A program made the translations under genes and the position numbers. A DNA stretch of 64,000 nt, taken from the NCBI GenBank assembly GCA_963716565.1, contig OY970318.1:580284-644283 (forward strand), written 5' to 3'. The DNA is from an uncultured Candidatus Saccharibacteria bacterium (GTDB lineage: Bacteria; Patescibacteriota; Saccharimonadia; Saccharimonadales; CAIOMD01). Under the pieces are notes generated by a model. It was not told where the DNA came from and searched no databases. It saw nothing but the letters and a program-made list of their open reading frames with translations. Positions 5,843-46,037 of this stretch are shown in pieces; position 1 is the stretch's first letter; each line of letters begins with the position of its first letter.

Positions 5843-5870
5843 GTCTATCATCTAGCGTCTAGCGTCTACT
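5843..5870. repeat. TCTA-type heptad array, 4 units (GTCTATC ATCTAGC GTCTAGC GTCTACT)
   Basis: Strict 7-nt period. The CTA of the last unit (5866-5868) is the TAG stop of the minus-strand cupin gene. Confidence 0.8.
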
Positions 5871-6264
5871 CCGTGGTGACGCCGTCAAAATCACCTTCAC
5901 TAGCTTCGGCGTCAGCTTTTGTAGCTCTGTGCTCGCCATCTTTGTGGTGAGCGGGTGAGTAAATTGTATAAAGTTTTAGCTCTTCAGTTGCAGAGGTGTT
6001 AACTACATTGTGCTGAGCGCCAGCCGGCACAACTACCGCCGAGCCATCAGCTACGGCATATTCGTTGCCATCAATGAATACCTTGCCCTGGCCTTTTTCG
6101 AAGCGAAAGAACTGATCGTTATCGGTATGAACTTCCATACCAATTTCTTCGTTGGGCTTTAACGACATCACGACTACTTGGCTGTGTTTGGCGGTATATA
6201 AAACTTTCCAAAAATTGGTATTTTCTAGTGTTGCTTGTTCAATGTTTTGACAAAATCCGCGCAT
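5866..6264 (-). CDS. cupin-domain protein
   Basis: Cupin motifs GMEVHTDNDQFFRFEKGQG and VVVPAGAQHNVVN. GGAGG lies before ATG 6264, and the ORF-track start 6276 is a TTG inside the SD. Confidence 0.8.
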   Translation of the reverse strand: MRGFCQNIEQATLENTNFWKVLYTAKHSQVVVMSLKPNEEIGMEVHTDNDQFFRFEKGQGKVFIDGNEYAVADGSAVVVPAGAQHNVVNTSATEELKLYTIYSPAHHKDGEHRATKADAEASEGDFDGVTTE

Positions 6265-6343
6265 TTTTACCTCCAATAATAAACTTTAATACTACTTACT
6301 ATACTAGCAGATTAATTAGAGTAAAACTCTCGCAAAAACTACT

Positions 6344-7078
6344 CTACTTGGATTTTTTGGCTGTCATAAGCTTTTCAACATCAGCTTTGGCTAGTTTTTT
6401 GGTACAGAAGAACCAGTCGTAGCATTGCATGTCTGCCTTATTGGCCATGCGTTCCTTAGCTACACCGCAAGAACCAGCCGTAGGCACAATAACATCGTCA
6501 CCCGGTTGCCAGTCGGCGGGGGTGGCAATGGCATAGGCATCAGCCGTCTGCAAACCAATTAATACCCTATAAATTTCGGCAAAGTTGCGACCCAAACTTA
6601 ATGGGTAATACAAAATGGTACGGATTACACCCTTAGGGTCAACAAAGAATACCGCCCTAACAGCCTTAGTATTACTTTCACCGGGCTGAATCATACCGTA
6701 TTTTTTGGCAACATCCATAGTAATGTTTTCTATAAGGGGGAACTTAACCTCGACATTTTTCATGCCTTTGTATTCGATTTTTTCTTTAATGGTTCTTAGC
6801 CAGGCAATGTGGCTATATAGGCCATCTACCGATAAGCCAACTAAATTACAGTTGGCATCATTAAATCTTTTCTCTTGGCTGGCAAAGGTCATGAATTCGC
6901 TCGTACAAACCGGCGTAAAATCGGCCGGGTGGCTAAACAAAATTACCCACTTGCCTTTGTAGTCGGCCGGGAAGTTAATTTCACCCTGCGTAGTAACAGC
7001 TTTAAATTCTGGTGCTTTTTCGCCAATACGTGGCATAGCGTAACATTCTTTTTGTTCTACTGGTTTTGGTTCGTCCAT
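6344..7078 (-). CDS. peroxiredoxin (Prx6/1-Cys-like subfamily with Cys-containing C-terminal extension)
   Basis: FSHPADFTPVCTSE peroxidatic-Cys motif; AAGGAG lies 7 nt before the ATG. Confidence 0.9.
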   Translation of the reverse strand: MDEPKPVEQKECYAMPRIGEKAPEFKAVTTQGEINFPADYKGKWVILFSHPADFTPVCTSEFMTFASQEKRFNDANCNLVGLSVDGLYSHIAWLRTIKEKIEYKGMKNVEVKFPLIENITMDVAKKYGMIQPGESNTKAVRAVFFVDPKGVIRTILYYPLSLGRNFAEIYRVLIGLQTADAYAIATPADWQPGDDVIVPTAGSCGVAKERMANKADMQCYDWFFCTKKLAKADVEKLMTAKKSK

Positions 7079-7096
7079 AGTTTTTCTCCTTATAAT

Positions 7097-7525
7097 TTAC
7101 TTCTTACACTTATTGCAAATGCCTTCTAAAACGACTCTTTTACGCACAATACGGCTAGCCCCAACCACTTCTTGCGGCAGTGGCAGAGCGTCGTATCGTA
7201 CACATTTAAAGTCCGTTATAGAACCACATTCAACGCAACGAAAATGATGATGGGGCAAAGTGCTAGCATCGTAGCGCTTTGGGTCGCCATGCCCCTCAAC
7301 AGATCCCAGCAAACCCTTTTGCACAAAAGTATTAAGCGTACGATTTACGGTATCAAATGATATAGCAGGGTACTGTTTCTTTAATTTTTGGTAAACGATT
7401 TCAGCGTTGGGATGGCTATAATCGTTGGCTAGCATTTCTAATACAGCCAGCCGCTGCGGAGTAACCCGTAAGCTAGCTGCCTGTAATTTATTAATCAAAT
7501 CTCCGACCATATTAATCATAGTCAT
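7097..7525 (-). CDS. Fur-family metalloregulator (PerR-like by context)
   Basis: RVTPQRLAVLEML winged helix, HHHFRCVECG and CNKCKK zinc motifs, adjacent to the peroxiredoxin. ATG 7525 is preferred over the TTG at 7558. Confidence 0.85.
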   Translation of the reverse strand: MTMINMVGDLINKLQAASLRVTPQRLAVLEMLANDYSHPNAEIVYQKLKKQYPAISFDTVNRTLNTFVQKGLLGSVEGHGDPKRYDASTLPHHHFRCVECGSITDFKCVRYDALPLPQEVVGASRIVRKRVVLEGICNKCKK

Positions 7526-7583
7526 TACTATATTGTAGCTATTCTTATTGTGCAACAAAAAAATAAAGCCCTAAGAGCTTTAT

Positions 7584-7674
7584 TGGCGGAGAGGGTGGGA
7601 TTCGAACCCACGATGCCATTGCTGACATACCGGTTTTCGAGACCAGCGCACTAGACCAGCTATGCGACCTCTCC
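7584..7674 (-). tRNA. tRNA-Ser (anticodon CGA), CCA encoded
   Basis: Acceptor GGAGAGG/CCTCTCC, anticodon loop CTCGAAA, long variable arm, T-loop GGTTCGAATCC. Confidence 0.85.
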
Positions 7675-7752
7675 GTAACAGAGGTAATTATAACACCTTC
7701 GCTTACTTAATCGGAACGGTATAACTATAAATCAGCCACTCTTTGGCGTAAT

Positions 7753-9865: not shown

Positions 9866-10570
9866 CTAAAAATGGATCTTGGAGGCTAATTTGTCAGTTA
9901 AATCACGTTTTTGGTGCTCAAACGGCAAGTATTTACCAAGTATTTCTATAATTTTATCGGCGTCTTTGGGCTCAAAATACATGGTAATAGCTACCGCAAA
10001 ACGTTTGTGTGGCAATAACTGAATGCTTGGTAAGGCGCCTTCGGCTATAACCGCAAAGCTGCGAAATTCTTCAAAACTAAAATGTTTTTGGCCAACTTGA
10101 ATACCGTCTGGCCCAATGGCGTATTCTAAAACTTTGGGTTTTAGAGCCCCGAAGATTGCAAAAACTATGGCGATTAGCACGATTACCACTGCCGAAAATA
10201 TTTCTTTGGTAATAAAGTATATAGCCGCGGCCAAGGCTAGGGCTGCCAATACTACATAGATGTACCAAATACTAGATTTTTCGTGATGCATGAATTCTGA
10301 AGCGTTCCAATTTATAGAATCACCACTCAAAGCTGGGGCTACATCGTTTGGCTGGCTAGCTGGCTGGTCTATCGCATTAGACTGGGTTAAGTTGCCAGAT
10401 TGGTATTGCCATTGCTGAGGCTCATCTTGAACTGGTTGTTCTGGTTGCTCGTCGAGCACTGGTGGCTGTTGAAGATTTTGCGACATAGGAACACTAGGAC
10501 CAGGCTGAGGCATCGCCCCAGGACTAGGAACATTCTGTGGCGTTTGGTTGTATTGAGTTTGCTCGTCCAT
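9866..10570 (-). CDS. membrane protein with Q/P-rich N-terminus and two TM helices
   Basis: Low-complexity N-terminus, two adjacent TM helices (IWYIYVVLAALALAAAIYFI, AVVIVLIAIVFAIFGAL) and a small C-terminal domain. ATG 10570 is preferred. Confidence 0.6.
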   Translation of the reverse strand: MDEQTQYNQTPQNVPSPGAMPQPGPSVPMSQNLQQPPVLDEQPEQPVQDEPQQWQYQSGNLTQSNAIDQPASQPNDVAPALSGDSINWNASEFMHHEKSSIWYIYVVLAALALAAAIYFITKEIFSAVVIVLIAIVFAIFGALKPKVLEYAIGPDGIQVGQKHFSFEEFRSFAVIAEGALPSIQLLPHKRFAVAITMYFEPKDADKIIEILGKYLPFEHQKRDLTDKLASKIHF

Positions 10571-14271: not shown

Positions 14272-14952
14272 TCATCTATTTTTTGGGGTATAGGCAAAAG
14301 TAGCACAATCAACCGAGTCAGCACAAGCCTTGAGCAAGGTTTTTGTACAGGCTTCGATAGTGGCGCCGGTGGTTATAACGTCGTCTACCAGCAAAATATG
14401 ATTGCTTTTAATGAGTCTAGTATTAACTGGCCAAAAAGCGTTTTGTAGTTGAGCCCTACGCGTAATACGTTTAGCGCCAAGCTGACGAAGTTTTGTCTGC
14501 CTCTTTAGCAGAGTTGATGTATGCCAGCCGCGCAGTTTGGCGAGTTCTTTGGCGATTAATTGGGCTTGATCAAAGCCACGCTCCCGCCGGCGTGACGGAG
14601 CAGTTGGAACGTACGTAACGAGCGGTGGCGCGGCGAAATACGGCAACGTATCATCTATCATCCCGGCCATTATTTTTGCCGCTTGACGTTTTTGCTCGAA
14701 TTTTAGAGCCTTAACTAGTTCGGCTGGCAAATCTTTGTAGGCTGTGCAGAACCAAGCATGTCCAGGACGCCATCTGTTAATGCATTTAGGGCAAGGCCTA
14801 TAATTGCGTGATAATTTACCGCAACCATAACAGATACTAGGCAGACGTTCGATTTGCTCGGCACATTCTGGGCAGAGAACTGAACCCTCAGCGCCACAAT
14901 TTAGGCAATCGTCAGGAGACAGCAAGCTCAAAATTCTTTCTATGGGGTTCAT
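14272..14952 (-). CDS. comF: ComF-family protein (phosphoribosyltransferase domain with N-terminal Cys4 zinc finger)
   Basis: CLNCG..CPEC and CYGCG..CPKC zinc knuckles, plus the PRTase motif ILLVDDVITTGATIEA. Confidence 0.85.
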   Translation of the reverse strand: MNPIERILSLLSPDDCLNCGAEGSVLCPECAEQIERLPSICYGCGKLSRNYRPCPKCINRWRPGHAWFCTAYKDLPAELVKALKFEQKRQAAKIMAGMIDDTLPYFAAPPLVTYVPTAPSRRRERGFDQAQLIAKELAKLRGWHTSTLLKRQTKLRQLGAKRITRRAQLQNAFWPVNTRLIKSNHILLVDDVITTGATIEACTKTLLKACADSVDCATFAYTPKNR

Positions 14953-15315: not shown

Positions 15316-15357
15316 GTCTTATATCTATCATCTAGCATCTATTGTCTAATGTCTACT
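15316..15357. repeat. TCTA-type heptad array, 6 units (GTCTTAT ATCTATC ATCTAGC ATCTATT GTCTAAT GTCTACT)
   Basis: Strict 7-nt period, located in the comF/hsp20 divergent spacer. Confidence 0.8.
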
Positions 15358-15538: not shown

Positions 15539-16000
15539 ATGGCAAGACGCACAGATAGTGATGATCTTCTTATGGAAGATGAATTGACTGCAGCTTTCTT
15601 GGGCGAAGAAGATTTAGCTTCACCACAAGCAATGCCACAGGCAATCGAAGAAGAATGGGACGCCGAGGAAGCAGTTCCCGGGCAATTAGCGGTCGATGTA
15701 TACGAAACCAAAGACAAGCTATTTGTTAAGGCACGAACAGCCGGCGTTAACAAGAATGATTTAGACGTTAGTATTTCTGACAACACCCTATCAGTAAAGG
15801 GTACTTTGTCGGCAGGCTACGAAGAAGATGTAGAAAATTACCACCTGCAAGAATGCTACTGGGGCGAGTTTTCGCGCAGTATTGTTTTGCCAGTGCCGGT
15901 AAAAGAAGATGAAATCGAAGCCGTTCTAAAAGATGGCGTTCTAACCATCAGCTTCGCTAAAGTTAAGCAAGACACAGTTAAGAAAATCCAAGTTTTGTAA
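15539..16000 (+). CDS. small heat-shock protein (Hsp20/alpha-crystallin)
   Basis: Alpha-crystallin-domain pattern AVDVYETKDKLFVKARTAGV ... FSRSIVLPVPV ... DGVLTISFAK. GGAGGG SD. Confidence 0.9.
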   Translation: MARRTDSDDLLMEDELTAAFLGEEDLASPQAMPQAIEEEWDAEEAVPGQLAVDVYETKDKLFVKARTAGVNKNDLDVSISDNTLSVKGTLSAGYEEDVENYHLQECYWGEFSRSIVLPVPVKEDEIEAVLKDGVLTISFAKVKQDTVKKIQVL

Positions 16001-19090: not shown

Positions 19091-22000
19091 ATGGGGCTAC
19101 ATGTAGTGGGCAATACAAAATTAAAATCCGTTAAGAAAAAAATATTCTTATTCTTATTTGGTGGCTTGTTTGCTCTGAGCCTTTTTATTCAATACATACC
19201 CAACACCGCAAGCGCAAATACCGCTTTTGATGAGCGTGCATATAGAGAGACTTGGGCTCATACAGCCATGCTTAAGCTTCATATTATTGATTTTGCAACA
19301 AACTGTTACATACCAGGGCTCTATACTGTCAACGATGCGCGAGGGGGCTATTTTTTGTGGAGTAACGAAGGTCAAAATGTAGATATAGGATTTTATAGTG
19401 AGCCCGATGACGGTCGGTATCATTGTTGGGAGCTTTCTGTGGCACTTGGACGCATCGTGAAAGATTACTGGGGATACAACGAAATAGTGGATTTCGTAGA
19501 AGCATCTGGTTTTCCTAAAATTATAAGAGATAGGCTGCAGGAGCCGGGCGGCTCTAACGATTTAATATTCCACCCCTATAGAAGCGATGGCAGCATTAAC
19601 GAGGATATTGTTTATAAATTAAACAGGGATACACAGCTAACCCATTCGGTAGAAGCGGATAGTTTTTGGGAGATTTTTGGGATGGATCACGACATGGATG
19701 AAAGGGCCGAGGATCTTGATCCCACATTTTTGTACATGAATCCAGACGCAGCCATAAAAGAAAGTGAGGGCGTTTATAGAATTACAAAAGATGTTCCTGA
19801 TGCATCAACAAGAAAATCAATTCTTTTTAAATTGTTTGATGCAATTCCCGATCAATATCAAGACGTAGTCCGCAGAGATGATGGTACGAGTGAAATAGCC
19901 ACAAAAGCTGTCTTATACAGCTTATTTTATTGGAATTTTGCCGATGGCAAATGTGGAGCCAAATTTAGCAGTCTGTATTCCGCGGCCGCTCCTGAGATAA
20001 AGGCGCAGGTAGATAAATTGGATACTGATCCAAACACCGACACGACATTAGGGGCAACCGGTGGCTTTCAGTATTTTCCAATATATGGCATAGACCCCGG
20101 CGGCGCGTCAGGGTATACCACGCAAAAGTTAGTTTTTTCACTGCCTTCTAATTTTAAGGAAGATGACGGGCGGCGAATGGGGTGGTGGGCTTACCAATAT
20201 GGCGTGAGGCAGCCCGGTGACGATGATGATGAAGTATATAGCTGCAGACAGGCTGCTTACTGGCTATACCACAATAAAGCTCAGGCTGATGCGTTTGGTC
20301 AGTGGCTACAAGCCAATGGTGTTGCGCCTAGACTACCAGGCGATAGCACGACTGATCCGCCACCACCCAGCCCAGACGATCCGCCAGGAGACGAAGACGG
20401 CACCGACTATTCGAATACCTGTGAGGCTAAGCTGTCTTTTGGTTGGTTAATCTGTAAAGTCCTTAACGGCGTAGATAACCTGGTTGATTGGATACCAGAC
20501 GCGATAAAAAGCCAGATGGAGATCACTCCGAAAGACTATGAAGGCGTAGACAATACGCCCACTAAGGGCTCTCTATATAAAACTTGGTCGACAGTAAGAA
20601 ATATTGCTACTATTGTTGTTGTCCTTATTGCTTTGTTTATGATATTAGCCCAGATATTAAGCTTTGACTTTGTTAGTGCTTATACGATTAAAAAAGTTAT
20701 GCCGCGCTTGGTAATAGCGGTTATATTCATGCAGCTATCATGGATTATCTTTGCAAACGTAATAGACATTTTTAATATTTTAGGCAACGGCATGATGGAA
20801 CTTATTTTAGGGCCTTTCGGCGGCGAATCAGACGTTGGTCCGATGATACAGCGCCTATACGAAGTAGATAAGGGCGCCGTGTTATCCGGAGCTGGCCTGG
20901 GCGCAATAGGCGTAATAATCTTAGGGGTCGCGGCCATAGGAGCAGCTGGCATTAGTTTTGTATTGATAGGCTTAGCCCTTTTCATATTTTTCGGCATACT
21001 TTCTGTGTTCGTCACGCTAGCAATCAGAAAGATAGTGCTGATATTTTTATTGGCCTTAGCACCGCTAGCAATAGTGTTTTGGGTTTTGCCCAATACCCAA
21101 AAAGCGTGGAAGATGTGGTGGAGTAATTATTCTAAGTTATTAATGATGTTCCCGATTGCCATGGGATTCTTAGCAATAGGCCAGGCTTTTGCCAGCATGA
21201 CTTCTTATAACGCCCCTAGCGGTGAATTTGTGGGCTATTTTATTATATTAATAGCCTATTTCGGACCAATGTTTATGGTGCCAAAAACCTTTAAGATGGG
21301 CGGTTCAATAATGGCAGCCGTAGCTAAGGGCGTGAGCGACCTTAAAGACAAGTCCAAGAAGGGCATAAAAGAATCTATGCCAATGAAGAATTTAAAAGAA
21401 TCTCATCAATACAACAAACAAGCCAGGGGGCGTAGTTTGGCTGCCTCTGGAAGCAATCGCTTATCCAGGGCTTATGGAAGATGGCAGGCAGGGACAACTT
21501 GGCGCTATGGTCAGCACGGAGATTCAGCCAGTAGTGCAGCCGAAAAACAAAGAAAAGAAGATGCCGAGAACAGCATCATATCAGCTACTCGTAATCTGCA
21601 GGGCGCTGCAAAAACCGAAGCGCTGAGACGCATCATGGAACTTAGAGAAGGTCAGCACGCAGAAATTAATGGCCACAGAATTACGCATAGCCAACATGCG
21701 GTATCTGTAGCAGCGAGCCAATTGTTGGCTACGGGTGGGGATGATCAATTTAGGTCAACTATGTATGATTTGCAAGCAGCAGGTCAAGCGGCAGCTGCGC
21801 GTGGCGATCATGCAGTAGCAAGACAGCTCTATGAACAATACGCAACTATACAGTCCGATAATTTCCCAGAAATGAAGAAATCTGCCGCAGACCTTATCAG
21901 GGCATACAACCCCAATGATCCAGCTTTTGGTGGCAATGCTAGCCTTACAACGCCTGGCTCTTTCGAATCATCCAACCTTTCGGTGGACCTACTTACTAGT

Positions 22001-22345: not shown

Positions 22346-22355
22346 GGCATTAACT

Positions 22356-23387: not shown

Positions 23388-23393
23388 TGTGGG

Positions 23394-23411: not shown

Positions 23412-23418
23412 GGCAATT

Positions 23419-24342: not shown

Positions 24343-24343
24343 A

Positions 24344-32002: not shown

Positions 32003-32033
32003 GACGAGATAACAGATAAACAAGGATGCAAAC

Positions 32034-32708
32034 ATGACAAGAATAATAAACAAACGAGGCCTCACAGTAATCACACTGGTAATTGTTATTATTGTTGCCG
32101 CACTGGTAGCATTATCATATTATTTGTCTTTTAAGAACGTTTTGCTATCTCCAACAGACGGCAACACAATAACCGTTCTGCAAAACAACCAAGAAATAGC
32201 ATCGACGTCTACGTCCAAAACAATGAAATTAAAAGCCGGACAATACTGTTTTAAGTTTTCAAAAAGCTCTGATTATCAAGAAATAACTGTGTGCAAAAAC
32301 ATTAATGAGAGCCAAGAGGTTGTATCTACCCTACTTAGTTACACCGCCAGTTATCTTAATGGGTTGTTGGCAGCCGAAGACCCCGGCATACAGTCCGCCC
32401 TATTAACCGTCGACAACATAAATGATTATCAGATTACAAATAAGCAGCTCTGCGTTAGGGGCGACTGGGCCGCTATTAGGCTCATGCCAAATGCCTGGTA
32501 CGACCCTAGCGTGCCGGCTGATTACTTGCCGCGACCGACTAACCCAAATAACACACTAGATATTGTTAAGGTAATCGCTCAAAAAGTTGATGGCCAATGG
32601 CAGATTGTGGCTGGGCCATCAGTTGTGTTCAGCATAGAAGACAACCCTAGCATCCCAGAAGAGGTTATTAGGGCAGTAAACCGCCTTGGCCTTGGCCTAG
32701 CCCAGTGA
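32034..32708 (+). CDS. membrane-anchored protein, unknown function (last gene of T4SS operon)
   Basis: N-terminal TM helix LTVITLVIVIIVAALVALSYY with a beta-rich ectodomain. Its 3' end overlaps the recF 3' end by 12 nt. Confidence 0.55.
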   Translation: MTRIINKRGLTVITLVIVIIVAALVALSYYLSFKNVLLSPTDGNTITVLQNNQEIASTSTSKTMKLKAGQYCFKFSKSSDYQEITVCKNINESQEVVSTLLSYTASYLNGLLAAEDPGIQSALLTVDNINDYQITNKQLCVRGDWAAIRLMPNAWYDPSVPADYLPRPTNPNNTLDIVKVIAQKVDGQWQIVAGPSVVFSIEDNPSIPEEVIRAVNRLGLGLAQ

Positions 32709-33764
32709 TATTCGGTTAATCGACTGCATAAACTCTTTTTGTACGACGTCGGCGTCGGTTGTGGTAATTATTGTCTGATAACTATTTAGGTGCTGAGTTA
32801 AGGTTTTACGACGCGAGCCATCAAGTTCACTAAACACATCGTCTAGCAACACCAAGGGCTTTTGGTCACGGGCCGCCTCAATTAGCCTAAGGGCGAGTAA
32901 TTTTAGGGCTATCACTAACGTACGAGTTTCGCCACGCGAAGCTACTGCGCCGGCTGGTTTTTTGTTTATTAAGACCTCAACGTCTTCGCGGTGCGGCCCA
33001 TAAGTAGTAAAGCCCCTAATTAAATCGATATCTATATTATTTTCTAGCTGGCGCAGCATGGTCGATTCGTAGGCGCTGGCCGATAAATCTGTGTCGTATT
33101 TTAGGCTAACGATTGTTTTGGCTTTAGCTATCTCACTATACGTAGAAGATAAACCGTTGTTTAGTCTATCGATTAAGCTAACCCGTGACGCCACGATCTT
33201 GCCAGCCAATTCACTCAAACGCACGTTCCAGGCAAATATCTGGGCGTTGGTGGTTTGCCGACCGGTTTTTAGTAAATGATTGCGCTGGGCCAAAACCCGG
33301 CGGTACTTCTGAGTAACAGACCCAAAGTCTGGCTGAGTTATCACCAAGATTTCATCTAAAAAATTACGCCTCGTTTCTGGCGAGCCGGTTAGTAGTCGCA
33401 TGTGCTCTGGTTCAAACAATATTACTGGCAGTTTTTCGTTAAAATTAAGCCGTTTTTTAGGCTTCTCATGAATCTCATAAACTTTTTCTACGACATCGCT
33501 AGTCTTAGTAAGCTTAACGACCCTAGTGCCATCTACCATATCGCCATCAATTCGAGCCCAGGCTTTATTGTTAGCAATAACGTCGCCAAAACCCGCCCTA
33601 TAAGATGAGTTGCCGCACAATATTAATATTGCCTCTAATAAATTAGTTTTACCGCTAGCATTTGGGCCAACCACAATGTTTACCGCTGGCGCCAGCTCAA
33701 CAGCAAAGTCTTTATAAGATCTAAAATTCTGCAACCGCAGCGCCGTAAAAGCGGACGATTTCAT
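32697..33764 (-). CDS. recF: DNA replication/repair protein RecF
   Basis: Walker A GPNASGKTNLLEAI, signature region and LVLLDDVFSELD Walker B; downstream of dnaN. Confidence 0.9.
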   Translation of the reverse strand: MKSSAFTALRLQNFRSYKDFAVELAPAVNIVVGPNASGKTNLLEAILILCGNSSYRAGFGDVIANNKAWARIDGDMVDGTRVVKLTKTSDVVEKVYEIHEKPKKRLNFNEKLPVILFEPEHMRLLTGSPETRRNFLDEILVITQPDFGSVTQKYRRVLAQRNHLLKTGRQTTNAQIFAWNVRLSELAGKIVASRVSLIDRLNNGLSSTYSEIAKAKTIVSLKYDTDLSASAYESTMLRQLENNIDIDLIRGFTTYGPHREDVEVLINKKPAGAVASRGETRTLVIALKLLALRLIEAARDQKPLVLLDDVFSELDGSRRKTLTQHLNSYQTIITTTDADVVQKEFMQSINRISLG

Positions 33765-33773
33765 AAATCGTCC

Positions 33774-33808
33774 TTAGATGTTAGACGATAGACGCTAGAC
33801 GATAGAAA
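33774..33808. repeat. TCTA-type heptad array in inverted orientation, 5 units (TTAGATG TTAGACG ATAGACG CTAGACG ATAGAAA)
   Basis: Strict 7-nt period. 33780-33794 is the exact reverse complement of 34222-34236. The array overlaps the recF SD. Confidence 0.8.
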
Positions 33809-33809: not shown

Positions 33810-34181
33810 CTACAAATCATTACCGACCCGATGGGCTCTTAAAAGGCCGTTGAGCAACTTATGGGCCGTATCGGCCTGTTTTAATACCAAAAGATAGTTA
33901 TCTTCATTAATGTAGCTAAGGTCTTTGGCTATTAATAATTGGCTCTTTATTTCATAAAGAGAGCCCGAGGCCATTGTATAAAAATGTTCCTGATCGGCTT
34001 TTGAGGATCTGCCAAAACCCTCTGCAATATTAGACACAACAGAAATCGATGCCCGTCTTAATTGAGAGGTCAAAGAATAAACTTCTGCTGCAGGAAAGTT
34101 GGCAGAACTTTTATATATTTCGAGTGCCAGCCTATGAGACTCTTGCCAGACCTTCAAATCTTTAAAATCCACAATCATCAC
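33810..34181 (-). CDS. four-helix-bundle protein (23S rRNA intervening-sequence protein family)
   Basis: Family signature LKVWQESHRLALEIYK ... LTSQLRRASISVVSNIAEGFGR. Confidence 0.85.
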   Translation of the reverse strand: MMIVDFKDLKVWQESHRLALEIYKSSANFPAAEVYSLTSQLRRASISVVSNIAEGFGRSSKADQEHFYTMASGSLYEIKSQLLIAKDLSYINEDNYLLVLKQADTAHKLLNGLLRAHRVGNDL

Positions 34182-34201
34182 AATAATTTTAACATTTAAA
34201 A

Positions 34202-34236
34202 TCTATCATCCAGCGTCTAACGTCTATCGTCTAACT
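34202..34236. repeat. TCTA-type heptad array, 5 units (ATCTATC ATCCAGC GTCTAAC GTCTATC GTCTAAC)
   Basis: Strict 7-nt period. The CTA at 34231-34233 is the dnaN TAG stop. Confidence 0.8.
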
Positions 34237-35322
34237 CTTGAGCGGCATAACAAGGTAGGTGCTATCGGCAGATTCGCTATCAGTCACAACACAAGGCTCA
34301 AGCTTACCATTAAAACTAAAGGTCACGTCCTTACCGCTCAACACACTTAACACATCCAGCAGATAACGTGAATTTAAAGTAACTTCACCAGTACCCTGAA
34401 TGGTTGCCGGGGCGCTGGAAGTATTTTCGCCAAGCTGTGAGGCGATAGATGTAATACTGATTTGTTTCGTAGACTCATCAACCTTTAGGGTTATACTGCC
34501 AGCACTTTCGCGGGCAAACAAACTAGAAACCTTTGTAATGGTAATGAATTCGCTGCGATCTACTGTAGCTGAAATATTAAATTTGGTAGGTATGAGTTTA
34601 CGATAGTCGGGGTAGGTGGCATCGATTAGTCGGCTAACTAGCTCTAAATCACCAGCCCTGAATAACACCTGCTGGCTATCGGATATCACTTCAATTTCTT
34701 CTACGCCCTCTGGCAAAATACGCAGCAATTCTTGTAGGGCCATGGCTGGTACTAATAAAGATATCTCTTGGGTTGTTTTGATTAGTTTCTTTTCGGCTAA
34801 ACGGTAGCTATCGGTCGCTGCCCCATACAAATAGCCTTTTTGGGATTGCAACAACACTCCCGTTAAAACTGGACGGGTTTCATCCGAAGATGCGGCAAAC
34901 ACTACCTGTGCCAAACTGCGACACTCTTTAACTGGCAATGTCCAACTTTGGCCTTTATCAATTTCGGGCACAACTGGGTATTCGTCGGCAATAATGCCAT
35001 TGATTGTGGAGCGATACTGTTCGGTACTAATGTGCAGCTTGTGTTCTTCGAGCTCTAAGTCGAGCACTCCGCCAGGCAAACTACTAACATATTCTTGCAT
35101 CAAACGGGCGGGGACGGTTATGGCGCCATTACTATGAACCTTAGAACCGATCTTTTCGGTGATGGCAATCTCTAGGTTGGTAGCCGATAAGCTTAGTCTA
35201 TTATCGACAGTTTTTAATAGAATGTTATTTAAGATTGGTAGGGGGTTTCTGCTAGATATAGCTATTCGGGCAACATTGTTTAGTGCCTTGGCCAGATTTT
35301 CTTGGGTGACTTGCAGCTTCAT
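34231..35322 (-). CDS. dnaN: DNA polymerase III beta sliding clamp
   Basis: Three-domain clamp length (363 aa), typical N-terminus MKLQVTQENLAKALNNV..R..LPILNNILL, downstream of dnaA. Confidence 0.9.
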   Translation of the reverse strand: MKLQVTQENLAKALNNVARIAISSRNPLPILNNILLKTVDNRLSLSATNLEIAITEKIGSKVHSNGAITVPARLMQEYVSSLPGGVLDLELEEHKLHISTEQYRSTINGIIADEYPVVPEIDKGQSWTLPVKECRSLAQVVFAASSDETRPVLTGVLLQSQKGYLYGAATDSYRLAEKKLIKTTQEISLLVPAMALQELLRILPEGVEEIEVISDSQQVLFRAGDLELVSRLIDATYPDYRKLIPTKFNISATVDRSEFITITKVSSLFARESAGSITLKVDESTKQISITSIASQLGENTSSAPATIQGTGEVTLNSRYLLDVLSVLSGKDVTFSFNGKLEPCVVTDSESADSTYLVMPLKS

Positions 35323-36930: not shown

Positions 36931-37235
36931 GGTTTTTGCTGTTTCACCCCTCCAACCTTTTAAAACCTAGTAGTTAAACTATACAAAAGAAAGTGAAAGT
37001 TTTCCACAGGTTTTTATGATAATGCCCGATTGCATAAACCAAAATGCTTAACAGAGGTGTTTTTATACACACCCATTTTTTGCATCTAGTAATAGGTGGA
37101 AAAGTTAAACTGATTTGTGGACAAACTAGCAAAATTTGTTTGTAAAATATGTACTTTTTACAATCCTTTAAAACCAAAACAGATTTGCCGGCTTGTTAGC
37201 TTGGCCCTCTTGTGGTAAGATAACCAACTGAAATT
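36931..37235. promoter_or_regulatory. candidate oriC / dnaA promoter region
   Basis: DnaA-box-like 9-mers TTTTCCACA (37000-37008), TGTGGACAA (37116-37124) and GGTGGAAAA (37095-37103), plus an AT-rich stretch at 37131-37180. It occupies the classical rpmH-dnaA spacer. Confidence 0.55.
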
Positions 37236-39452: not shown

Positions 39453-39725
39453 TTATTTATAAACTTGGTTGTGCGTGCCAACGTCTAAAAAGATTATTGA
39501 GTCTTCGGTTTCTTCGTAGATTACCCTAATATCACCAGTTACAGAAAACGCTCGGCAGCCCTTATGTTTTCCCAGTAGGGGATGGTCATTCAGTAGTCTA
39601 CTAGCACGGCTACTCACAAATACCGATAATTTAAGGTCAAATTTCTCTGCCAGCTTTTTGTTGGGCTTAATGCGAATAATGTAGCTTTTATCAAACTTTT
39701 TAGAAAAAACTATTTGTTTTGGCAT
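39453..39725 (-). CDS. type II toxin, RelE/ParE superfamily
   Basis: 90 aa with a pattern ending LLGKHKGCRAFSVTGDIRVIYEE...VGTHNQVYK. It lies 5 nt downstream of a small antitoxin-like gene. Confidence 0.7.
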   Translation of the reverse strand: MPKQIVFSKKFDKSYIIRIKPNKKLAEKFDLKLSVFVSSRASRLLNDHPLLGKHKGCRAFSVTGDIRVIYEETEDSIIFLDVGTHNQVYK

Positions 39726-39730
39726 ATCTA

Positions 39731-40024
39731 TTAAAGATTATGCAGATGTTCGGTCATTTCTTCAATGGTTGAATAAGTCTTTAGCTTACCATCTTTAAGG
39801 TCTTTTTTAGCTTGTTTGGCAGCTTTATTCAATCTGGCAGCAGCAACGTCGGTCGGTTCTCCCCAGCTGTCGTAGCCAAAGTCTACGTGGCGATTTTCGG
39901 TTTCGGCTTTGGCCCAAAAGCGCACATAAGCTTGGGCCGAATCGAATCCAAGATCTTTAGCGCGAACTTCTAATTTGTCGCGAACAAGCTTATCGATAGG
40001 CACCTGTAATTTAACGCTATTCAT
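39731..40024 (-). CDS. type II antitoxin (ribbon-helix-helix-like N-terminus)
   Basis: 97 aa with N-terminal VKLQVPIDKLVRDKLEVRAKDLGFDSAQAYVRFW, upstream of the toxin. Confidence 0.6.
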   Translation of the reverse strand: MNSVKLQVPIDKLVRDKLEVRAKDLGFDSAQAYVRFWAKAETENRHVDFGYDSWGEPTDVAAARLNKAAKQAKKDLKDGKLKTYSTIEEMTEHLHNL

Positions 40025-40098
40025 AATACCAGAATAGTATCAAAATAGTATCAAAATGTCAACAGCCCTTGTGTTGAAATCCCCACTTCTGGGGCTTT

Positions 40099-40133
40099 AT
40101 CTATCATCTATCATCCATCGTCCAACATCTATT
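40099..40133. repeat. TCTA-type heptad array, 5 units (ATCTATC ATCTATC ATCCATC GTCCAAC ATCTATT)
   Basis: Strict 7-nt period. The CTA at 40129-40131 is the TAG stop of the 798-aa gene. Confidence 0.8.
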
Positions 40134-42525
40134 TTGGTTTGCGGGTGATGGCTCCCATGCCCAGGCCCAATATCAATAAGCCAAAGACTATTAAAAAGGT
40201 GTCTAGGCCCGTCTTTTCGGAGGTCACAAACGTGTTATCGGCCGGGCTGTTGGTTTGAATATTGTTTGTAGCATCATTTTCTATGCCGGCAACGCTGGTG
40301 AGGGGTAGCGGAGCCGGCTGGGTGATTGTTATGTTTTGTGAGGCTGCGGGGGTTTGGTTAATCATTATGGGTGTTGCAGTGGGTGTAGGCGTTGGCGTTG
40401 ATACGTTCTTGTCGTTTTCGTAAATATTTCCACTTTGGTCCGATTCGTTAACTGGTATATTTTCGATTGTTAAAACGGTGGGTTCGCTCCAGCCAGCCGC
40501 ATTACCGGCGCTTAGTGTAATTGTAAATGCCGATTCAGGAGCTGGGCTGATTATAAAACTGTTAGCATTGCTAATAAGCCCAAGTATCTCGTCGTTAGCG
40601 TTGGCGATTCTAACCATTACATCTTCGGTGTAACTATTGGCCCAAGATACCACCACGCTTGCGCCACTGCGCCCATAGCTGGCTACTGGCGCATCTGGGG
40701 CTACGGGTACGGCATCTTCTTTTTCTGCTACATTAACTTCTAGTGTGGCCTTGGCGCTGCCACTGTCGGCCGAAGTAGCCTCTAATACAACAAAGCCTTG
40801 ATAGGGCTGGCCGTAGACACACTCAAAAGTAGGCAAGGTGTTGCCGGTGGATTCAAAGACCCCGTCATTATTACAATCCCAACTGTAACTAGTTATGTAT
40901 CCGTCTGGATCATATGAGCTACCACCGCTTAGAGCCAAAGGTTCGCCAATATAACCCGTGTTTGCCCCGCTAATTTCAGCCACCGGCTGTAACTGCATCT
41001 TATCTAGGGCGCTAAGGCTGTATTTAACAGAATAATCACGCTGGCCGTTAGTAATTGTGCCATTGGTGGAGCTAATTAAATCAAGCACCGTGCTGTTAAA
41101 TTCTTCGTTCATTTTTTGAATGTCGCCAGGCTGAGGATAGCGGGGGTAATTAAGGGGTAGCGCTACAGCCGAAACCGATACCGGATCAAGTTCTAGGGCT
41201 CGCTGGATTACCTGGCTTTTGGTATAGTGGCCGGGGCCTGGGTCGGGGTCTTTGGCGGCTCCGTCGGTTATAACCAATATTTTTTTCTGAGCGCCAGGTC
41301 GCCAGCTTAGCTCGTTCATAGCCGTCATTAGGCCAGAATATAAAGCCTCTGGCTCATCGCCACCATAAGCTCCCTTTAAGCTGTTAATTTGCTCTTTTAC
41401 GGCTTCTTTGTTGTAGGTAAAATCGCCAATCTTTTTGGAGTAATAAAACGGAATCTTAACATTCTGAAAATCGCTGTAGGCCACAATACCTACTCGAGTG
41501 TCCCAGTAAGAATTAAATAGGGCCGAAACAAAGCCAGCCAGATTATTTTTTATAGTGCTAATCATGGCAATCATGCTGCCGCTGGTGTCTATTACCAATG
41601 CCAAGTCTAGCTGGTACAGCTTATCGTTCTTATTCAGCCAAGTAACAGCTTGGATTTTGCCAGCCAAAGCGGAGTTACGGTCTTTTAAAAGCATAGCAAT
41701 TTCGTTGGCGGCCTGGGGGATCCAGCGGTTTTGATAAACCTCTTGGTGAGTTTTGTTAATAAACTGTTCGTATATGGCGCCAACGGGCGTATTCGCCAAA
41801 GAATAATTGGCGCAAATGGGGTCGTTAATATCGCACCAGCTGGTTTTTAGGGCGATTTCGTCTGGCAGGTAGTTCTTGCGGGCCAACAGCACGCCAGTCT
41901 GGAACGAAGATGCGTTGCCCCGAACCCATGGCGCGGTCGTGGGCGGAATCATATTAGTACGCGGGTTAAATTTAGGATCGCCAAAAAGCGCTACATAAGC
42001 AATGCGCGGCCTAAAATTAGGCTTGATTTTAAACATGGCATCGCCCACAACGTGCGCACCCTGTGAATAACCACCCAAAATAACAGTTTGGAATGGGCAA
42101 GAGGTAAGTTTGTCTTCTAAATACCAGGCCAGCTCTTCGGCGCCATCGGCCACACTTTCGTAGTAGCGATTATAAACATCTGTGCGATGATTGGGCTTGC
42201 TAGTAAACCCATCAACCACGTCCACCGCCTCATACCCATATTGGTTGTACCTACCCTCAAAGTTGTGCAGAGAAACCCTCTCGACAGAAAGCCCGGTTGT
42301 CCTCTTGTTGATTTCCTCAAAGAAAGCAAAAGATTGCGGCTCGGCTCTTCCAAAAGTTATTGGATTGCTAGTTTCGTTTAGGTAGTTGTGTTCTAGGTTT
42401 TGTCCAGAGCCACGTGCAAAAATAATCGCCACATCTTTACACTCACTACTTTCACCAATAACCACCCGTAGTGGTGTTATTAATAAGGCGAATGCTGTTA
42501 GTAGGATTACTAACCTATTTTTCAT
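40129..42525 (-). CDS. surface-anchored multidomain protein: cutinase-like serine esterase, vWA domain, PKD-like domain, TPTP stalk, C-terminal TM anchor
   Basis: Signal peptide; GGYSQGAHVVG nucleophile elbow after FARGSGQ; MIDAS LALVIDTSGSM; YDPDGYITSYSWDCNNDGVFE; STPTPTPTATP; C-terminal helix FLIVFGLLILGLGMGAI. Confidence 0.75.
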   Translation of the reverse strand: MKNRLVILLTAFALLITPLRVVIGESSECKDVAIIFARGSGQNLEHNYLNETSNPITFGRAEPQSFAFFEEINKRTTGLSVERVSLHNFEGRYNQYGYEAVDVVDGFTSKPNHRTDVYNRYYESVADGAEELAWYLEDKLTSCPFQTVILGGYSQGAHVVGDAMFKIKPNFRPRIAYVALFGDPKFNPRTNMIPPTTAPWVRGNASSFQTGVLLARKNYLPDEIALKTSWCDINDPICANYSLANTPVGAIYEQFINKTHQEVYQNRWIPQAANEIAMLLKDRNSALAGKIQAVTWLNKNDKLYQLDLALVIDTSGSMIAMISTIKNNLAGFVSALFNSYWDTRVGIVAYSDFQNVKIPFYYSKKIGDFTYNKEAVKEQINSLKGAYGGDEPEALYSGLMTAMNELSWRPGAQKKILVITDGAAKDPDPGPGHYTKSQVIQRALELDPVSVSAVALPLNYPRYPQPGDIQKMNEEFNSTVLDLISSTNGTITNGQRDYSVKYSLSALDKMQLQPVAEISGANTGYIGEPLALSGGSSYDPDGYITSYSWDCNNDGVFESTGNTLPTFECVYGQPYQGFVVLEATSADSGSAKATLEVNVAEKEDAVPVAPDAPVASYGRSGASVVVSWANSYTEDVMVRIANANDEILGLISNANSFIISPAPESAFTITLSAGNAAGWSEPTVLTIENIPVNESDQSGNIYENDKNVSTPTPTPTATPIMINQTPAASQNITITQPAPLPLTSVAGIENDATNNIQTNSPADNTFVTSEKTGLDTFLIVFGLLILGLGMGAITRKPK

Positions 42526-44375: not shown

Positions 44376-44882
44376 CTATTTCTTCTTGGGCCTACGTTTT
44401 TTGTTTACAGGTTTCTTTGTGCTTGTCGAGGCTTTTTTAGGTTTTAAAGCTATCTTTTTAGCAATAACTTCTTTAACCTTTGGTAGTTCTTGGGCTACGA
44501 TTTGCTTCACCGATTTACGGGCATTAAGCGTCAAAATAAGTAGCGCGATTGCGGCTACAAATAATATAACTGCCAATACGGCAGGCCACTTCCAGTTAGA
44601 GGATTTCGTAGAGGCAACGGGCGTAGTGGTAGCGGGTGGTGCTATAACTTTTAATTCACCGGTAGCCGGCTGCTGCAAAACGCTCGCTGCGGCTGAACTG
44701 GTTGAGCTACTACTGCCTTGAGTTAGCGTGCCGCTAGTAGGGTTTTGGTAAAAAGAACTACTTGGTCTTTGGCCCATTAAGTCGTTTATATCCGCCGCGC
44801 CATTAGCACTAGCCGCTAAGACCGGAGCGCCATACAAAACAAGCGTAAGTATCGTCAAAAAAACGCTAATAACTTTTTTCAC
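44376..44882 (-). CDS. secreted/anchored Ser/Thr-rich protein with TM helix and Lys-rich C-terminal tail
   Basis: A GTG start gives MKKVISVFLTILTLVLYGAPVLA, a signal-like N-terminus. It has a low-complexity S/T region, the helix WPAVLAVILFVAAIALLILTL and a KKPVNKKRRPKKK tail. The ORF-track TTG at 44918 is an alternative start. Confidence 0.5.
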   Translation of the reverse strand: MKKVISVFLTILTLVLYGAPVLAASANGAADINDLMGQRPSSSFYQNPTSGTLTQGSSSSTSSAAASVLQQPATGELKVIAPPATTTPVASTKSSNWKWPAVLAVILFVAAIALLILTLNARKSVKQIVAQELPKVKEVIAKKIALKPKKASTSTKKPVNKKRRPKKK

Positions 44883-44929
44883 TCTCTGTATTATGAGCCA
44901 AAAGTGCCTTTGTTCCAAACTCTAACATC

Positions 44930-44971
44930 CAGCATCTATCATCCATCGTCTAGCTTCTATTGCTTAAGCGT
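44930..44971. repeat. TCTA-type heptad array, 6 units (CTCTAAC ATCCAGC ATCTATC ATCCATC GTCTAGC TTCTATT)
   Basis: Strict 7-nt period in a divergent spacer. Confidence 0.8.
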
Positions 44972-45010
44972 TAGCTTTTTGCCACACTATAGGTAACTAA
45001 AGGGGGCAGA

Positions 45011-45487
45011 ATGAAAAAAAGATTAGAACAGAGCGGTTTCCACATCTGGATAGTAGCACTCATCGTGGTCGTCGTAGCCGCTGTCGGTTTTGCCGGCTGG
45101 TATGTGTGGGATAAGAACAAGGCCGATGATAACACCAACGTCACAAACCCAACACCGACGCCAAGCGTTACGGTTACCGCAACGCCTACTCCAACTGTCG
45201 TTGCCGAAACCAAAAACGAGCTAGATACTCTGCGTGAATTCTGCCAAGGTGATGACCCTGACACCGTAGTTGGCGGCATCAAATATATAGAAACCAACGA
45301 TGGTAAATTTGGCTCTTGTGGCATTGGCAGCAGAACGTCCGAGGGCGGAGCCATGCTAATTAGCGCCTATGTGAATGAATCGTGGGTACGGGTATGGGCT
45401 GGCAACGGTATTATGGATAATAGCTTGTGTGCCCAATACAAGCTTCCTTCTACAATCTACGCCGACTGCATTGGCTTCTACGAATAA
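45011..45487 (+). CDS. anchored protein with conserved GFH...GFAGWYVWDKN N-terminal helix and TPTP linker
   Basis: MKKRLEQSGFHIWIVALIVVVVAAVGFAGWYVWDKN, a PTPTPSVTVTATPTPT linker and a small Cys-containing domain. Its N-terminus is paralogous to that of the 57074 gene. Confidence 0.6.
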   Translation: MKKRLEQSGFHIWIVALIVVVVAAVGFAGWYVWDKNKADDNTNVTNPTPTPSVTVTATPTPTVVAETKNELDTLREFCQGDDPDTVVGGIKYIETNDGKFGSCGIGSRTSEGGAMLISAYVNESWVRVWAGNGIMDNSLCAQYKLPSTIYADCIGFYE

Positions 45488-45488
45488 G

Positions 45489-46001
45489 TTATTTAAGTCT
45501 ATATTTTGGCCGACCGTAATCGTCTTGTAGACGGACAATGTCTGTTTCATCAGATAAGTCATTCGGGTCTAAGTGTTGCCAAACTTCGGCCACGATCCCC
45601 CAATCATCTAAACCATATAAACGATGCCTTTGGCCAACTTCGAATTGCACTATGTCGCCGATCGGCAAAATAATATGTTCTTCTGGCTGTTCATCGGTAT
45701 CGCTAACTTTTATTGCCATGGGGCCTTCAATAATTCGCCAAATCTCTTTACGTTTATTGTGGTACTGCCAAGAGAAACAACTACCGGGCATTAATACTAA
45801 GAATTTAGGACTGATATTCTCGAGCGTTGAGAAGGTGTGTTTGATATCACTAAAATAATAATCAATAAATTTTTCGGCGTCGGATAAATCAAAGCGGTAA
45901 GATAAACCATAGGGTCTATCAAGCTCTGTCTCAATAATCTTTAAGCCTAGTTTTTCGACTAGCCTATCAGTATGCCTTATCAATTCTTTTCTGTCTCTCA
46001 T
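45489..46001 (-). CDS. cupin-domain protein (mannose-6-phosphate-isomerase type II C-terminal-like)
   Basis: WQYHNKRKEIWRIIEGPMAIKV and VGQRHRLYG cupin motifs. Confidence 0.65.
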   Translation of the reverse strand: MRDRKELIRHTDRLVEKLGLKIIETELDRPYGLSYRFDLSDAEKFIDYYFSDIKHTFSTLENISPKFLVLMPGSCFSWQYHNKRKEIWRIIEGPMAIKVSDTDEQPEEHIILPIGDIVQFEVGQRHRLYGLDDWGIVAEVWQHLDPNDLSDETDIVRLQDDYGRPKYRLK

Positions 46002-46002
46002 A

Positions 46003-46037
46003 ATCCATCATCTAGCCTCTATCGTCCATTGTCTAAC
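46003..46037. repeat. TCTA-type heptad array, 5 units (ATCCATC ATCTAGC CTCTATC GTCCATT GTCTAAC)
   Basis: It fills the entire spacer between the stop at 46033-46035 (the CTA of the last unit) and the start codon at 45999-46001. Confidence 0.8.

Follow-up and report, generated by a model that had tools for sequence, protein, structure and literature searches.

What are the runs of head-to-tail 7-nt units (heptads) that stand at gene boundaries in an uncultured Candidatus Saccharibacteria bacterium? We addressed this question in a stretch of 64,000 nt (GenBank assembly GCA_963716565.1, contig OY970318.1, positions 580,284 to 644,283), referred to below as the window. An earlier note on this DNA had listed seven arrays of the consensus (A/G)TC(T/C)A(N)(C/T), could not assign them to a described repeat family, and offered as candidate roles a frame-independent translational stop, binding sites for a protein, or a hairpin-free termination signal. 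Here we report that two of the arrays form the inverted arms of a cassette carrying a gene for a 23S rRNA intervening sequence protein (IVP or S23p, Pfam family PF05635), that this cassette, arms included, is found at different loci in sister genomes, and that inverted arrays of period 7 flank the majority of IVP genes in nature. The reading that we favour, and to which we give roughly an even chance, is that the arrays are terminal repeats, with solo remnants or landing sites, of mobile cassettes resembling the intervening sequences (IVSs) of 23S rRNA.

Heptad arrays and the cassette between dnaN and recF

A search for at least three tandem NTCYANN units returned exactly seven arrays in the window, six on the plus strand and one (33773-33807) on the minus strand. 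Dinucleotide shuffles (100) contained on average 0.09 arrays of at least three units and 0.00 arrays of at least four, compared with seven in the window at either threshold; the heptad arrays are real and far above chance. The earlier note, which had proposed such a comparison with shuffled sequence, had found all seven and placed them correctly between genes, with coordinates that agree to within 1-17 nt. When the threshold was relaxed (at least 16/18 over three units), only the same seven were obtained in the window; there were no extra copies, and the solo arrays had no degenerate partners. Scanning for self-similarity at lag 7 irrespective of motif recovered all seven and an eighth, TAG-type array at 1202-1247, and the same scan gave 0-1 matches at lags 4-6 and 8-11, lag 7 alone being significant. 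CRISPR was ruled out by the period, which is too short, and DnaA-trios by their 3-nt period. The array strand is unchanged on both sides of dnaA, which rules out replication direction as its determinant.

On the complementary strand the units read nnTAGAn, and it had been claimed that they supply stop codons in all frames. On this strand the claim holds for seven of the eight arrays and fails for the array at 40099, which covers only two frames because 2/5 of its units read TGG. On the RTCYANY strand none of the seven arrays has stops in all three frames; only the eighth does, and it has them on both strands. The details given for individual arrays proved right: the reverse complement of 5843-5870 has TAG at offsets 3, 10, 17 and 24, the terminal CTA of an array is the stop codon of the minus-strand open reading frames (ORFs) 5866-6276, 34231-35322, 40129-42525 and 46033-47130, and the array 46003-46037 is the whole spacer between ORFs 46033-47130 and 45489-46001.

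The arrays 34201-34235 and 33773-33807 are inverted relative to each other and enclose a PF05635 gene between dnaN (34231-35322) and recF (32697-33764), both on the minus strand. The product of the enclosed gene matches PF05635 with E = 2e-37 and the PDB entry 2GSC (XCC0516, five chains) with E = 3e-18. In the order of the transcribed strand, the dnaN stop codon lies within the 5' array and is followed by a leader and the IVP gene, the 3' array, 9 nt, and the recF ATG. In the predicted fold of the 486-nt cassette RNA the two 35-nt arrays are paired, with an energy of -141.4 kcal/mol compared with -116.6 +/- 6.6 kcal/mol for shuffles (z = -3.75; 0/100 fold as well), and the base of the predicted stem pairs the last dnaN codons with the Shine-Dalgarno (SD) region of recF. 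The view that the arrays form no hairpin is thus correct for single arrays, which fold within the shuffle range, and incorrect for these two, which pair with each other. Rfam searches around the cassette, with E up to 10, gave only noise and nothing credible. The features are collected in the table.

Table. Heptad arrays and cassette gene of the window; units are given on the RTCYANY strand unless stated otherwise
Feature	Position	Strand	Units or product	Setting
Array, TAG-type	1202-1247	+	TGCATAG CTAATAG TTTATAG GTTTTAG GTTGCAG GTACTAG (plus strand)	Overlaps start codon of HIT-family gene 802-1206(-) (HIT domain match); 50 nt upstream of ORF 1297-2499(+)
Array, solo, 4 units	5843-5870	+	GTCTATC ATCTAGC GTCTAGC GTCTACT	On minus strand, first TAG is stop of cupin gene 5866-6276(-); spacer convergent with rhodanese gene 5321-5782(+)
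Array, solo, 5-6 units	15316-15357	+	One degenerate unit from 15316, then (15323-15357) ATCTATC ATCTAGC ATCTATT GTCTAAT GTCTACT	586-nt spacer between comF-like gene 14272-14952(-) and hsp20 15539-16000(+); TCTA-sense relative to hsp20, 182 nt 5' of its start
Array, 3' arm	33773-33807	-	TTCTATC GTCTAGC GTCTATC GTCTAAC ATCTAAG	Ends 9 nt before recF ATG; last unit overlaps AAGGA SD-like sequence
Cargo gene	33810-34181	-	IVP (S23p), four-helix bundle, 122-123 aa	In loop between arms
Array, 5' arm	34201-34235	+	ATCTATC ATCCAGC GTCTAAC GTCTATC GTCTAAC; minus strand GTTAGAC GATAGAC GTTAGAC GCTGGAT GATAGAT	First TAG on minus strand is dnaN stop codon
Array, solo, 5 units	40099-40133	+	ATCTATC ATCTATC ATCCATC GTCCAAC ATCTATT	TAG is stop of cutinase/VWA gene 40129-42525(-)
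Array, solo, 7 units	44913-44961	+	7 units, 3 of them TCCA	Divergent spacer between ORF 44376-44918(-) and ORF 45011-45487(+); TCTA-sense, 50 nt upstream of the latter
Array, solo, 5 units	46003-46037	+	ATCCATC ATCTAGC CTCTATC GTCCATT GTCTAAC	Supplies stop of GT4 glycosyltransferase gene 46033-47130(-); on the other side lineage-specific ORF 45489-46001(-)

Arrays and cassettes in relatives and in other genomes

Corresponding loci were fetched from relatives whose DnaN is 86-90% identical to that of the window (L321, 88%; L322, 86%; L323 and L324, 90%). The dnaN-recF spacer of L321 contains the same cassette, with an IVP identical at 108/122 positions and five units in each arm. No IVP gene is present in this spacer in the other three loci: in L322 its 46 nt are made of solo (TTTTCAA)5, and in L323 and L324 it is a 116-nt empty hairpin of AAGTA-type heptads. 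A genome of the L323/L324 type (locus L326) carries an IVP cassette after the GT4 gene, with the same leader, TAGA/TCTA arms (one unit of the 5' arm being degenerate) and an IVP identical to that of the window at 104/122 positions. Aligned three ways, the cassettes are homologous from a point within the 5' array to the last part of the 3' array, where homology ends with the array, and the flanks beyond are unrelated. The window counterpart of the 5' arm position in L326 is the solo array 46003-46037; the slot after GT4 is filled in the window by an ORF (45489-46001) without counterpart in the relatives, next to a conserved gene (45011-45487), and in L325 by a PemK toxin gene preceded by two TAG-type arrays and followed by a TCTA array. 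A second pair of cassettes, L283 and L284 from metagenomes, is 92% identical over 393 nt, with unrelated flanks and with homology ending exactly at the 3' array. In both pairs (window/L326 and L283/L284) one element occupies different loci and homology runs out at the repeats; between the window and the sister genome of L326 the arms are included, and the limit is the outer edge of the arrays.

The arrays change at positions that are themselves kept. After the VWA gene, an array is present in the window and in two relatives with 5, about 6 and 8 units, the variation in unit number that had been predicted, and the downstream toxin-antitoxin pair differs. Several of the boundaries marked by solo arrays in the window have variable small genes in the relatives. 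Among three orthologous 3' arms, 10/10 variable columns fall on unit positions 1, 4, 6 and 7 and none on T2, C3 or A5 (hypergeometric estimate, p about 0.001).

Some further loci of these genomes deserve mention. In L283 the 3' array (TACGCTN)5 follows the IVP gene (1441-1469 versus 3001-3358), the IVP stop codon lies inside the array and a matching (ATAGCGT)n array stands 1.5 kb upstream, an arrangement suggestive of additional cargo separating the 5' arm from IVP. Directly after the dnaA stop codon, L321 (9608-9657) and L323 (9719-9764) have a TAGA/TGGA array running into an ORF of 87-92 aa before dnaN; both array and ORF are absent from the window and from L322. Arrays rich in TGG have an open frame and contain ATG, and may in this way create or extend ORFs. 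One divergent spacer of L325 (8927-9079) contains four heptad families end to end (GTAGTTN, AAGTAAN, TTTTCAA and TCTA), of which AAGTAAN and TTTTCAA are those found at dnaN-recF in L323 and L322, respectively.

The association with IVP extends well beyond these relatives. Eighty PF05635 loci from metagenomes were fetched by protein similarity alone, without reference to repeats, and 66 of them had both flanks. Inverted repeats scoring above the 95th percentile of permuted flank pairs were present in the flanks of 45/66 IVP loci (68%) and of 5/89 control genes from the same loci (5.6%). When the arms were compared with themselves over lags 3 to 12, identity reached 0.67 at lag 7 and stayed at 0.25-0.33 at all the others. 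Inverted arrays of period 7 enclose the majority of IVP genes in nature. Over the IVP loci we counted 87 arrays at period 7 and at most nine at any other period, and period-7 arrays were 14 times denser within 200 nt of IVP (1.8 per kb) than elsewhere (0.13 per kb). The motifs of the arms are diverse (AAGATTT, GGGAGTA, TAGCCAT, AGGGACC, GGGTAAT, GAGATTT and others) and do not co-vary with IVP similarity: IVPs 54% identical to the window protein have AAGATTT-type arms, and IVPs 38-43% identical to it have TCTA arms. The 5' arm is purine-rich (0.68), and IVP is co-oriented with the upstream gene in 54/64 loci. Stop triplets occur at 0.112 per position in 42 independent 5' (outward) arms; shuffles matched for composition give 0.081 +/- 0.005, and the complementary strand gives 0.043. 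The all-frame stop property is real, polar and enriched, and it looks more than incidental. No rRNA or other Rfam family was detected in 20 IVP loci.

Two loci show heptads inside genes, where domain likenesses were read from the translated sequence. In L313 (973-1002 and 1312-1341), (GTTTCAG)n lies within an ORF on both sides of a segment like a peripheral-subunit-binding domain and forms FQVSGFR-type linkers, and in L312 (2080-2347), (AGGTTAC)n flanks, again inside an ORF, a segment resembling a DNA methyltransferase. Heptad arrays may thus be tolerated in, or inserted into, protein linkers too.

A scan for four tandem RTCTANY units in one genome per species gave at least 120 loci. Among those listed, Bacteroidota, Acidobacteriota, Chloroflexota, Gemmatimonadota, Planctomycetota and Clostridia supply the majority and Proteobacteria only a few. 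Among the matches listed, many arrays are perfect repeats and many form inverted pairs 5-600 nt apart; by a hand count made by eye, all of the roughly 25 close pairs have the order 5'-(nnTAGAn)n...(RTCTANY)n-3'. Among the loci listed, three of four PF05635 genes lie between TAGA/TCTA arms and the fourth (Maribacter) between inverted (TGTTAAG)n/(CTTAACA)n, and tandem arrays of period 7 number 126 (36 of them with other motifs), compared with 6 at periods 5, 6 and 8-11. A pattern scan of viral contigs, in which the matches listed include AT-rich giant-virus bins, provided no usable background count. Of 163 arrays, 143 are intergenic. The fetched loci contain 46 paired arrays, and the window has one pair. 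The number of units falls steadily from four upward (69, 43, 17 and 10 arrays), without a peak at five, and on this basis we rejected a unit number set by a pentamer.

The positions of solo arrays in these loci depend on their sense. Where the genes on both sides of the spacer run in the same direction, the median distance of TAGA-sense arrays (n = 39) from the upstream stop codon is 2 nt, and 33/39 are nearer to that stop than to the next start. In the same kind of spacer, TCTA-sense arrays (n = 22) lie a median of 14.5 nt from the downstream start, a distance somewhat inflated by the longest-ORF start rule, with 17 nearer to the start, four nearer to the stop and one tie. Shine-Dalgarno sequences were visible by eye directly after 3' arms. 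Arrays also occur in divergent and convergent spacers. Two facts summarise this grammar. An element occupies its spacer from end to end, and on either strand the arm that bears the stops is invariably the 5' one. The polarity is fixed, the stop-rich arm facing outward on both strands.

In one Pyrinomonadaceae genome (L007, L017 and L019) several (AGTAGAC)n...(GTCTACT)n hairpins have GC-rich loops of 55-75 nt, two of which have beginnings and ends in common. They look like a family of empty cassettes of the miniature inverted-repeat transposable element type.

Readings of the arrays

Under the mobile-cassette reading, a complete element would have the structure 5'-(nnTAGAn)n - cargo - (RTCYANY)n-3' and would fill a spacer from the upstream stop codon to the downstream ribosome-binding site. 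The complete element of the window would be the one that carries the S23p/IVP gene, and the other six arrays would be solo arms, or half-sites, at other gene boundaries. Since the outward units carry TAG and 7 is not a multiple of 3, a ribosome entering from the neighbouring gene would terminate in any frame at the edge of the element, so that the element could adjoin a host stop codon, or take its place, without harm. Once transcribed, the arms would pair into a stem of about 25-29 bp, whose processing would release the cargo mRNA; the model for this proposed step is the Coxiella IVS, whose 28-bp stem is cut by RNase III. The tandem 7-nt structure itself would arise and be resized by replication slippage.

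Several observations weigh against this reading. Six of the eight window arrays are solo, and their origin is not accounted for, because inverted arms that recombine do not leave one arm on its own. Three arrays (15316, 44913 and 1202) lie in divergent or promoter-side spacers, to which neither a stop function nor a stem applies, and 22% of the units carry TGG in place of TAG. The start-proximal distances come in part from the start rule mentioned above. No target-site duplication was recognisable at the cassette junctions in the window and its relatives, and no transposase or recombinase was found among the ORFs scanned (the Pfam scan of the window covered 30). The heptad motifs differ widely among cassettes, unlike the conserved ends of classical transposons. 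Mobility is deduced from comparison only, and two ancestral copies with reciprocal loss would be an alternative account. Finally, mismatches between the arms of 48 cassettes show no bias towards G-U over A-C (42 versus 43), and the substitutions between the arms of the window and L321 are not compensatory. For these two reasons selection on an RNA stem is not demonstrated, and the pairing of the arms is a property of how the arms are made, without visible refinement by selection on the RNA helix.

The lack of such refinement suits an explanation in which the arrays are neutral by-products of a replication slippage that in many bacteria favours 7-nt units, with no function and no element, and survive in spacers only, because a 7-nt indel would frameshift a gene. 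The idea is in the literature, as cited in PMC4679880 and PMC4692102, and many of our observations are in line with it: the 5, about 6 and 8 units at one site in relatives, the turnover of motifs at the dnaN-recF spacer, the many perfect repeats among the matches listed, mismatches between arms that look neutral, and the dominance of period 7 whatever the motif (126 versus 6 among the loci listed; 87 versus at most 9). However, slippage cannot make inverted complementary arrays or the fixed order from 5' purine to 3' pyrimidine. It also leaves unexplained the tie to one gene family (68% versus 5.6%), the movement of the arms together with their cargo, the confinement of substitutions to non-core positions and the excess of stop triplets over composition. 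We therefore consider this explanation rather unlikely.

The conservation of the core positions would be expected if the arrays were iterated sites for a ring-shaped oligomeric binder that contacts one triplet every 7 nt in the manner of HutP, perhaps the pentameric IVP itself, and regulates translation or mRNA fate at gene boundaries. A sense strand with UAG every 7 nt has the architecture of a HutP site (PMC2425495), the arrays are 14 times enriched beside IVP genes, and an unidentified binding protein has also been proposed for the TAACTGA and Nostoc heptamers (PMC4679880; bioRxiv 10.1101/2022.06.06.494920). Moreover, the window IVP matches the five-chain XCC0516 entry 2GSC, a homopentamer according to PMC4990558, and most window arrays have five units. 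Against such a binder stand the unit-number distribution with no peak at five, the arm motifs that do not track IVP similarity, the many motifs without a common triplet, and the finding of no HutP-like gene among the ORFs scanned. We regard specific binding as an unlikely basis for the arrays.

A host cis-regulatory device that is not mobile would account for the placement between two cistrons. According to this explanation, the stem joins the stop region of one gene to the Shine-Dalgarno sequence of the next, a terminating ribosome unmasks the next start, and solo TAGA arrays serve as back-up stops. The 5' arm indeed begins at a stop codon and the 3' arm ends at an SD sequence or start, the predicted stem base in the window joins the last dnaN codons to the recF SD region, and IVP is mostly co-oriented with the upstream gene (54/64 loci). 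A regulatory stem is difficult to reconcile with arms that show neither G-U bias nor compensatory change, with presence/absence and replacement of the motif at the same spacer in genomes about 90% identical in DnaN, and with arrays in divergent and convergent spacers, and we find a device of this type quite improbable.

There is very little to recommend non-B DNA (a G-quadruplex or i-motif, as proposed for GGGAATC and GGGGAYT) or hairpin-free transcription terminators: the arrays follow the positional rules of the Xanthomonas and Nostoc repeats that have been read as quadruplex-forming (PMC4692102), but TAGA/TCTA units have no G-tract and quadruplexes are thereby ruled out, while a terminator is opposed by the absence of a U-tract, of self-structure and of a GC-rich hairpin with U-tract, by arrays inside operons such as dnaN-recF and in divergent promoter regions (15316, 44913 and 1202), and by a promoter and terminator scan of 33-47.5 kb, in which counts equalled those of shuffles and did not coincide with arrays. 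The earlier interpretation is thus upheld in its stop property and not in its hairpin-free terminator, nor, as described below, in its view that no known family applies.

The mobile-cassette reading can be carried further, to a proposal that we put forward as improbable and yet worth stating. Inverted period-7 arrays together with PF05635 might constitute a phylum-spanning class of minimal mobile cassettes, of which the rRNA IVS would be a special case; the pentameric IVP would recognise the arrays with about one subunit per heptad, solo arrays would be landing sites, and the arrays would organise the turnover of small accessory genes. If this were true, the turnover of toxin-antitoxin pairs and orphan ORFs at gene boundaries would be organised by arrays, including in the streamlined genomes of the candidate phyla radiation (CPR). 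The same pattern recurs in many phyla, with heptads of many kinds, and suggests a route by which tiny CPR genomes could exchange small accessory genes without classical transposons.

Genomic setting and comparison with known systems

In the window rnpA-yidC-jag diverges from dnaA-dnaN-recF and a type-IV-secretion-like cluster is present; the window is most likely the origin region of a Saccharibacteria (CPR) chromosome. About 90% of it is coding, with a median spacer of about 40 nt. Three DnaA boxes with one mismatch each are clustered between dnaA and rnpA (37000-37124), the count of DnaA boxes over the window is not above chance, and the relatives have a perfect TTATCCACA in the dnaA-dnaN spacer (L323, about 9940-9960). 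At gathering score, Rfam detected four tRNAs and no rRNA in the whole window. The stop codons of 65 long ORFs are TAA in 31, TAG in 26 and TGA in 8, at a G+C content of 43%. TAG is usually the rarest bacterial stop codon. The TAG share of 40% looks high and may have a bearing on the TAG-based local heptad family.

On the minus strand, the array 40099-40133 is directly followed (40025-40098) by a small hairpin (CCCCAGAAGTGGGG, 40081-40094) and then by a promoter close to consensus (TTGACA and TACTAT spaced by 17 nt, the latter with an upstream TG), which overlaps an 11-nt direct repeat (AATAGTATCAA, 2.3 copies, 40033-40057). The antitoxin/YafQ pair 39453-40024 probably has this repeat as its operator. 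L323 shares both promoter and operator, and L321 has a different promoter and a PemK pair there. A cluster of large ORFs at 19091-32708, which adjoins recF and occurs in relatives too, includes a PrgI-like protein, a TraG/VirB4-like ATPase and a lysozyme/amidase protein and looks like a type-IV-secretion-like system. Two longer repeats lie elsewhere in the window. A 300-nt unit is present in 2.2 copies with 100% identity (58182-58853) inside ORF 58078-59823 (minus strand, 581 aa, no Pfam match) and may have arisen by recent duplication in frame or be an artefact of the assembly. A 21-nt unit (ATTTAGAAGAACACATAAAGA, 3.5 copies, 78% matches, 52376-52448) at the 3' end of the methyltransferase ORF 51634-52554 (plus strand) would translate as a 7-residue protein repeat.

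The arrays add a new motif family and a new lineage to a class of heptamer repeats that is already known, though unexplained. STRR heptamers such as CCCCAGT are cyanobacterial and have been known since 1990. The window arrays, which the earlier note could not assign, fit the heptameric intergenic repeats (PMC4692102, PMC4679880 and the cyanobacterial STRR) in position, strand rule, inverted pairs and variability. Tandem copy number, the intergenic strand rule, inverted pairs and variation all agree with the class, and the units RTCYANY/nnTRGAn match none of the published motifs CCCCAGT, GGGAATC and TAACTGA and have no G-tract. No function has been established for this class, for which long simple sequence repeats (LSSR) is the class term of Mrazek et al. 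2007 as quoted in PMC4679880. Its best-described members are GGGAATC in Xanthomonas and GGGGA(C/T)T (GGGGAYT) in Nostoc (Rehm et al. 2015, PMC4692102), which prefer four units, are 89-93% intergenic, form 70-75 convergent inverted pairs, are transcribed and vary between Xcc and Xac. The arrays described here resemble them in having tandem 7-nt units, mostly in 4-5 copies and about 90% intergenic, with the purine-rich strand in sense 0-50 nt from or overlapping the stop codon, the antisense orientation just upstream of ORFs, convergent inverted pairs, and a position kept between close relatives while length and sequence vary. They differ in their TAGA/TCTA core, with which no quadruplex is possible, in their host, a reduced CPR genome, and in that window arrays bracket and move with a PF05635 gene. 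Because the TAGA motif follows the same rules without a G-tract, the quadruplex is not the common denominator of the class and can be dropped as its general explanation. This context, arrays bounding and moving with a PF05635 cassette, appears new: the literature searched contained nothing linking heptamers to Saccharibacteria nor, as far as found, to PF05635, and 'S23' does not occur in PMC4692102.

Another member of the class, the direct repeat TAACTGA of Beggiatoaceae, Cyanobacteria and Bacteroidetes, provides stops in three frames and abuts start codons (MacGregor 2015, PMC4679880). Both TAACTGA and the window arrays are intergenic 7-nt direct repeats (2-6 copies of TAACTGA) with three-frame stops in one orientation and overlap with the upstream stop, often a few nucleotides from the next start codon without a canonical ribosome-binding site. 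TAACTGA repeats, unlike the window arrays, stand mainly in the stop-bearing orientation right before starts, with one inverted set reported and no cassette association. In Nostoc, heptamers upstream of recF and recO affect expression (bioRxiv 10.1101/2022.06.06.494920). As for HutP, which binds three XAG motifs with 4-nt spacers (PMC2425495), the likeness is one of sequence, NAG triplets recurring at a fixed 7-nt period; in HutP a single leader has its sites in two groups of three, and other cassette families use heptads without AG.

Compared with mobile elements, the cassettes are short palindromic intergenic elements at gene ends with presence/absence polymorphism and possible mRNA stems. 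In these respects they resemble Correia elements of Neisseria and REP/BIME, miniature inverted-repeat elements that are cotranscribed with genes. They differ in that no conserved full-length consensus, target duplication or cognate transposase was seen and that their ends are tandem heptads differing between lineages. The general class of miniature inverted-repeat elements is also named in PMC4692102.

A close parallel to the complete cassette is the IVS with an S23p ORF in 23S rRNA of Leptospira and Coxiella burnetii (PMC4990558). In Coxiella burnetii the IVS is 428 nt long; its loop contains the S23p ORF, and RNase III cuts its terminal stem of 28 bp (PMC4990558). Like this IVS, the element described here is about 430-470 nt long, carries the same protein family in its loop and has an inverted-repeat stem of about 28 bp, in our case predicted; both are sporadically distributed, and mobility has long been suspected. 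The PF05635/S23p ORF and the enclosing, predicted terminal stem are thus common to the two, and the location is not: the element described here is found in spacers of protein-coding operons (dnaN-recF, or after GT4) and not in helix 9, 25 or 45 of 23S rRNA. Its arms, moreover, are tandem heptads, and cutting by RNase III is known for the Coxiella stem, while the stem proposed here is read from sequence. In the arrays of this Saccharibacteria genome two separate old puzzles meet, the heptanucleotide repeats of gene boundaries and the S23p-coding intervening sequences of 23S rRNA.

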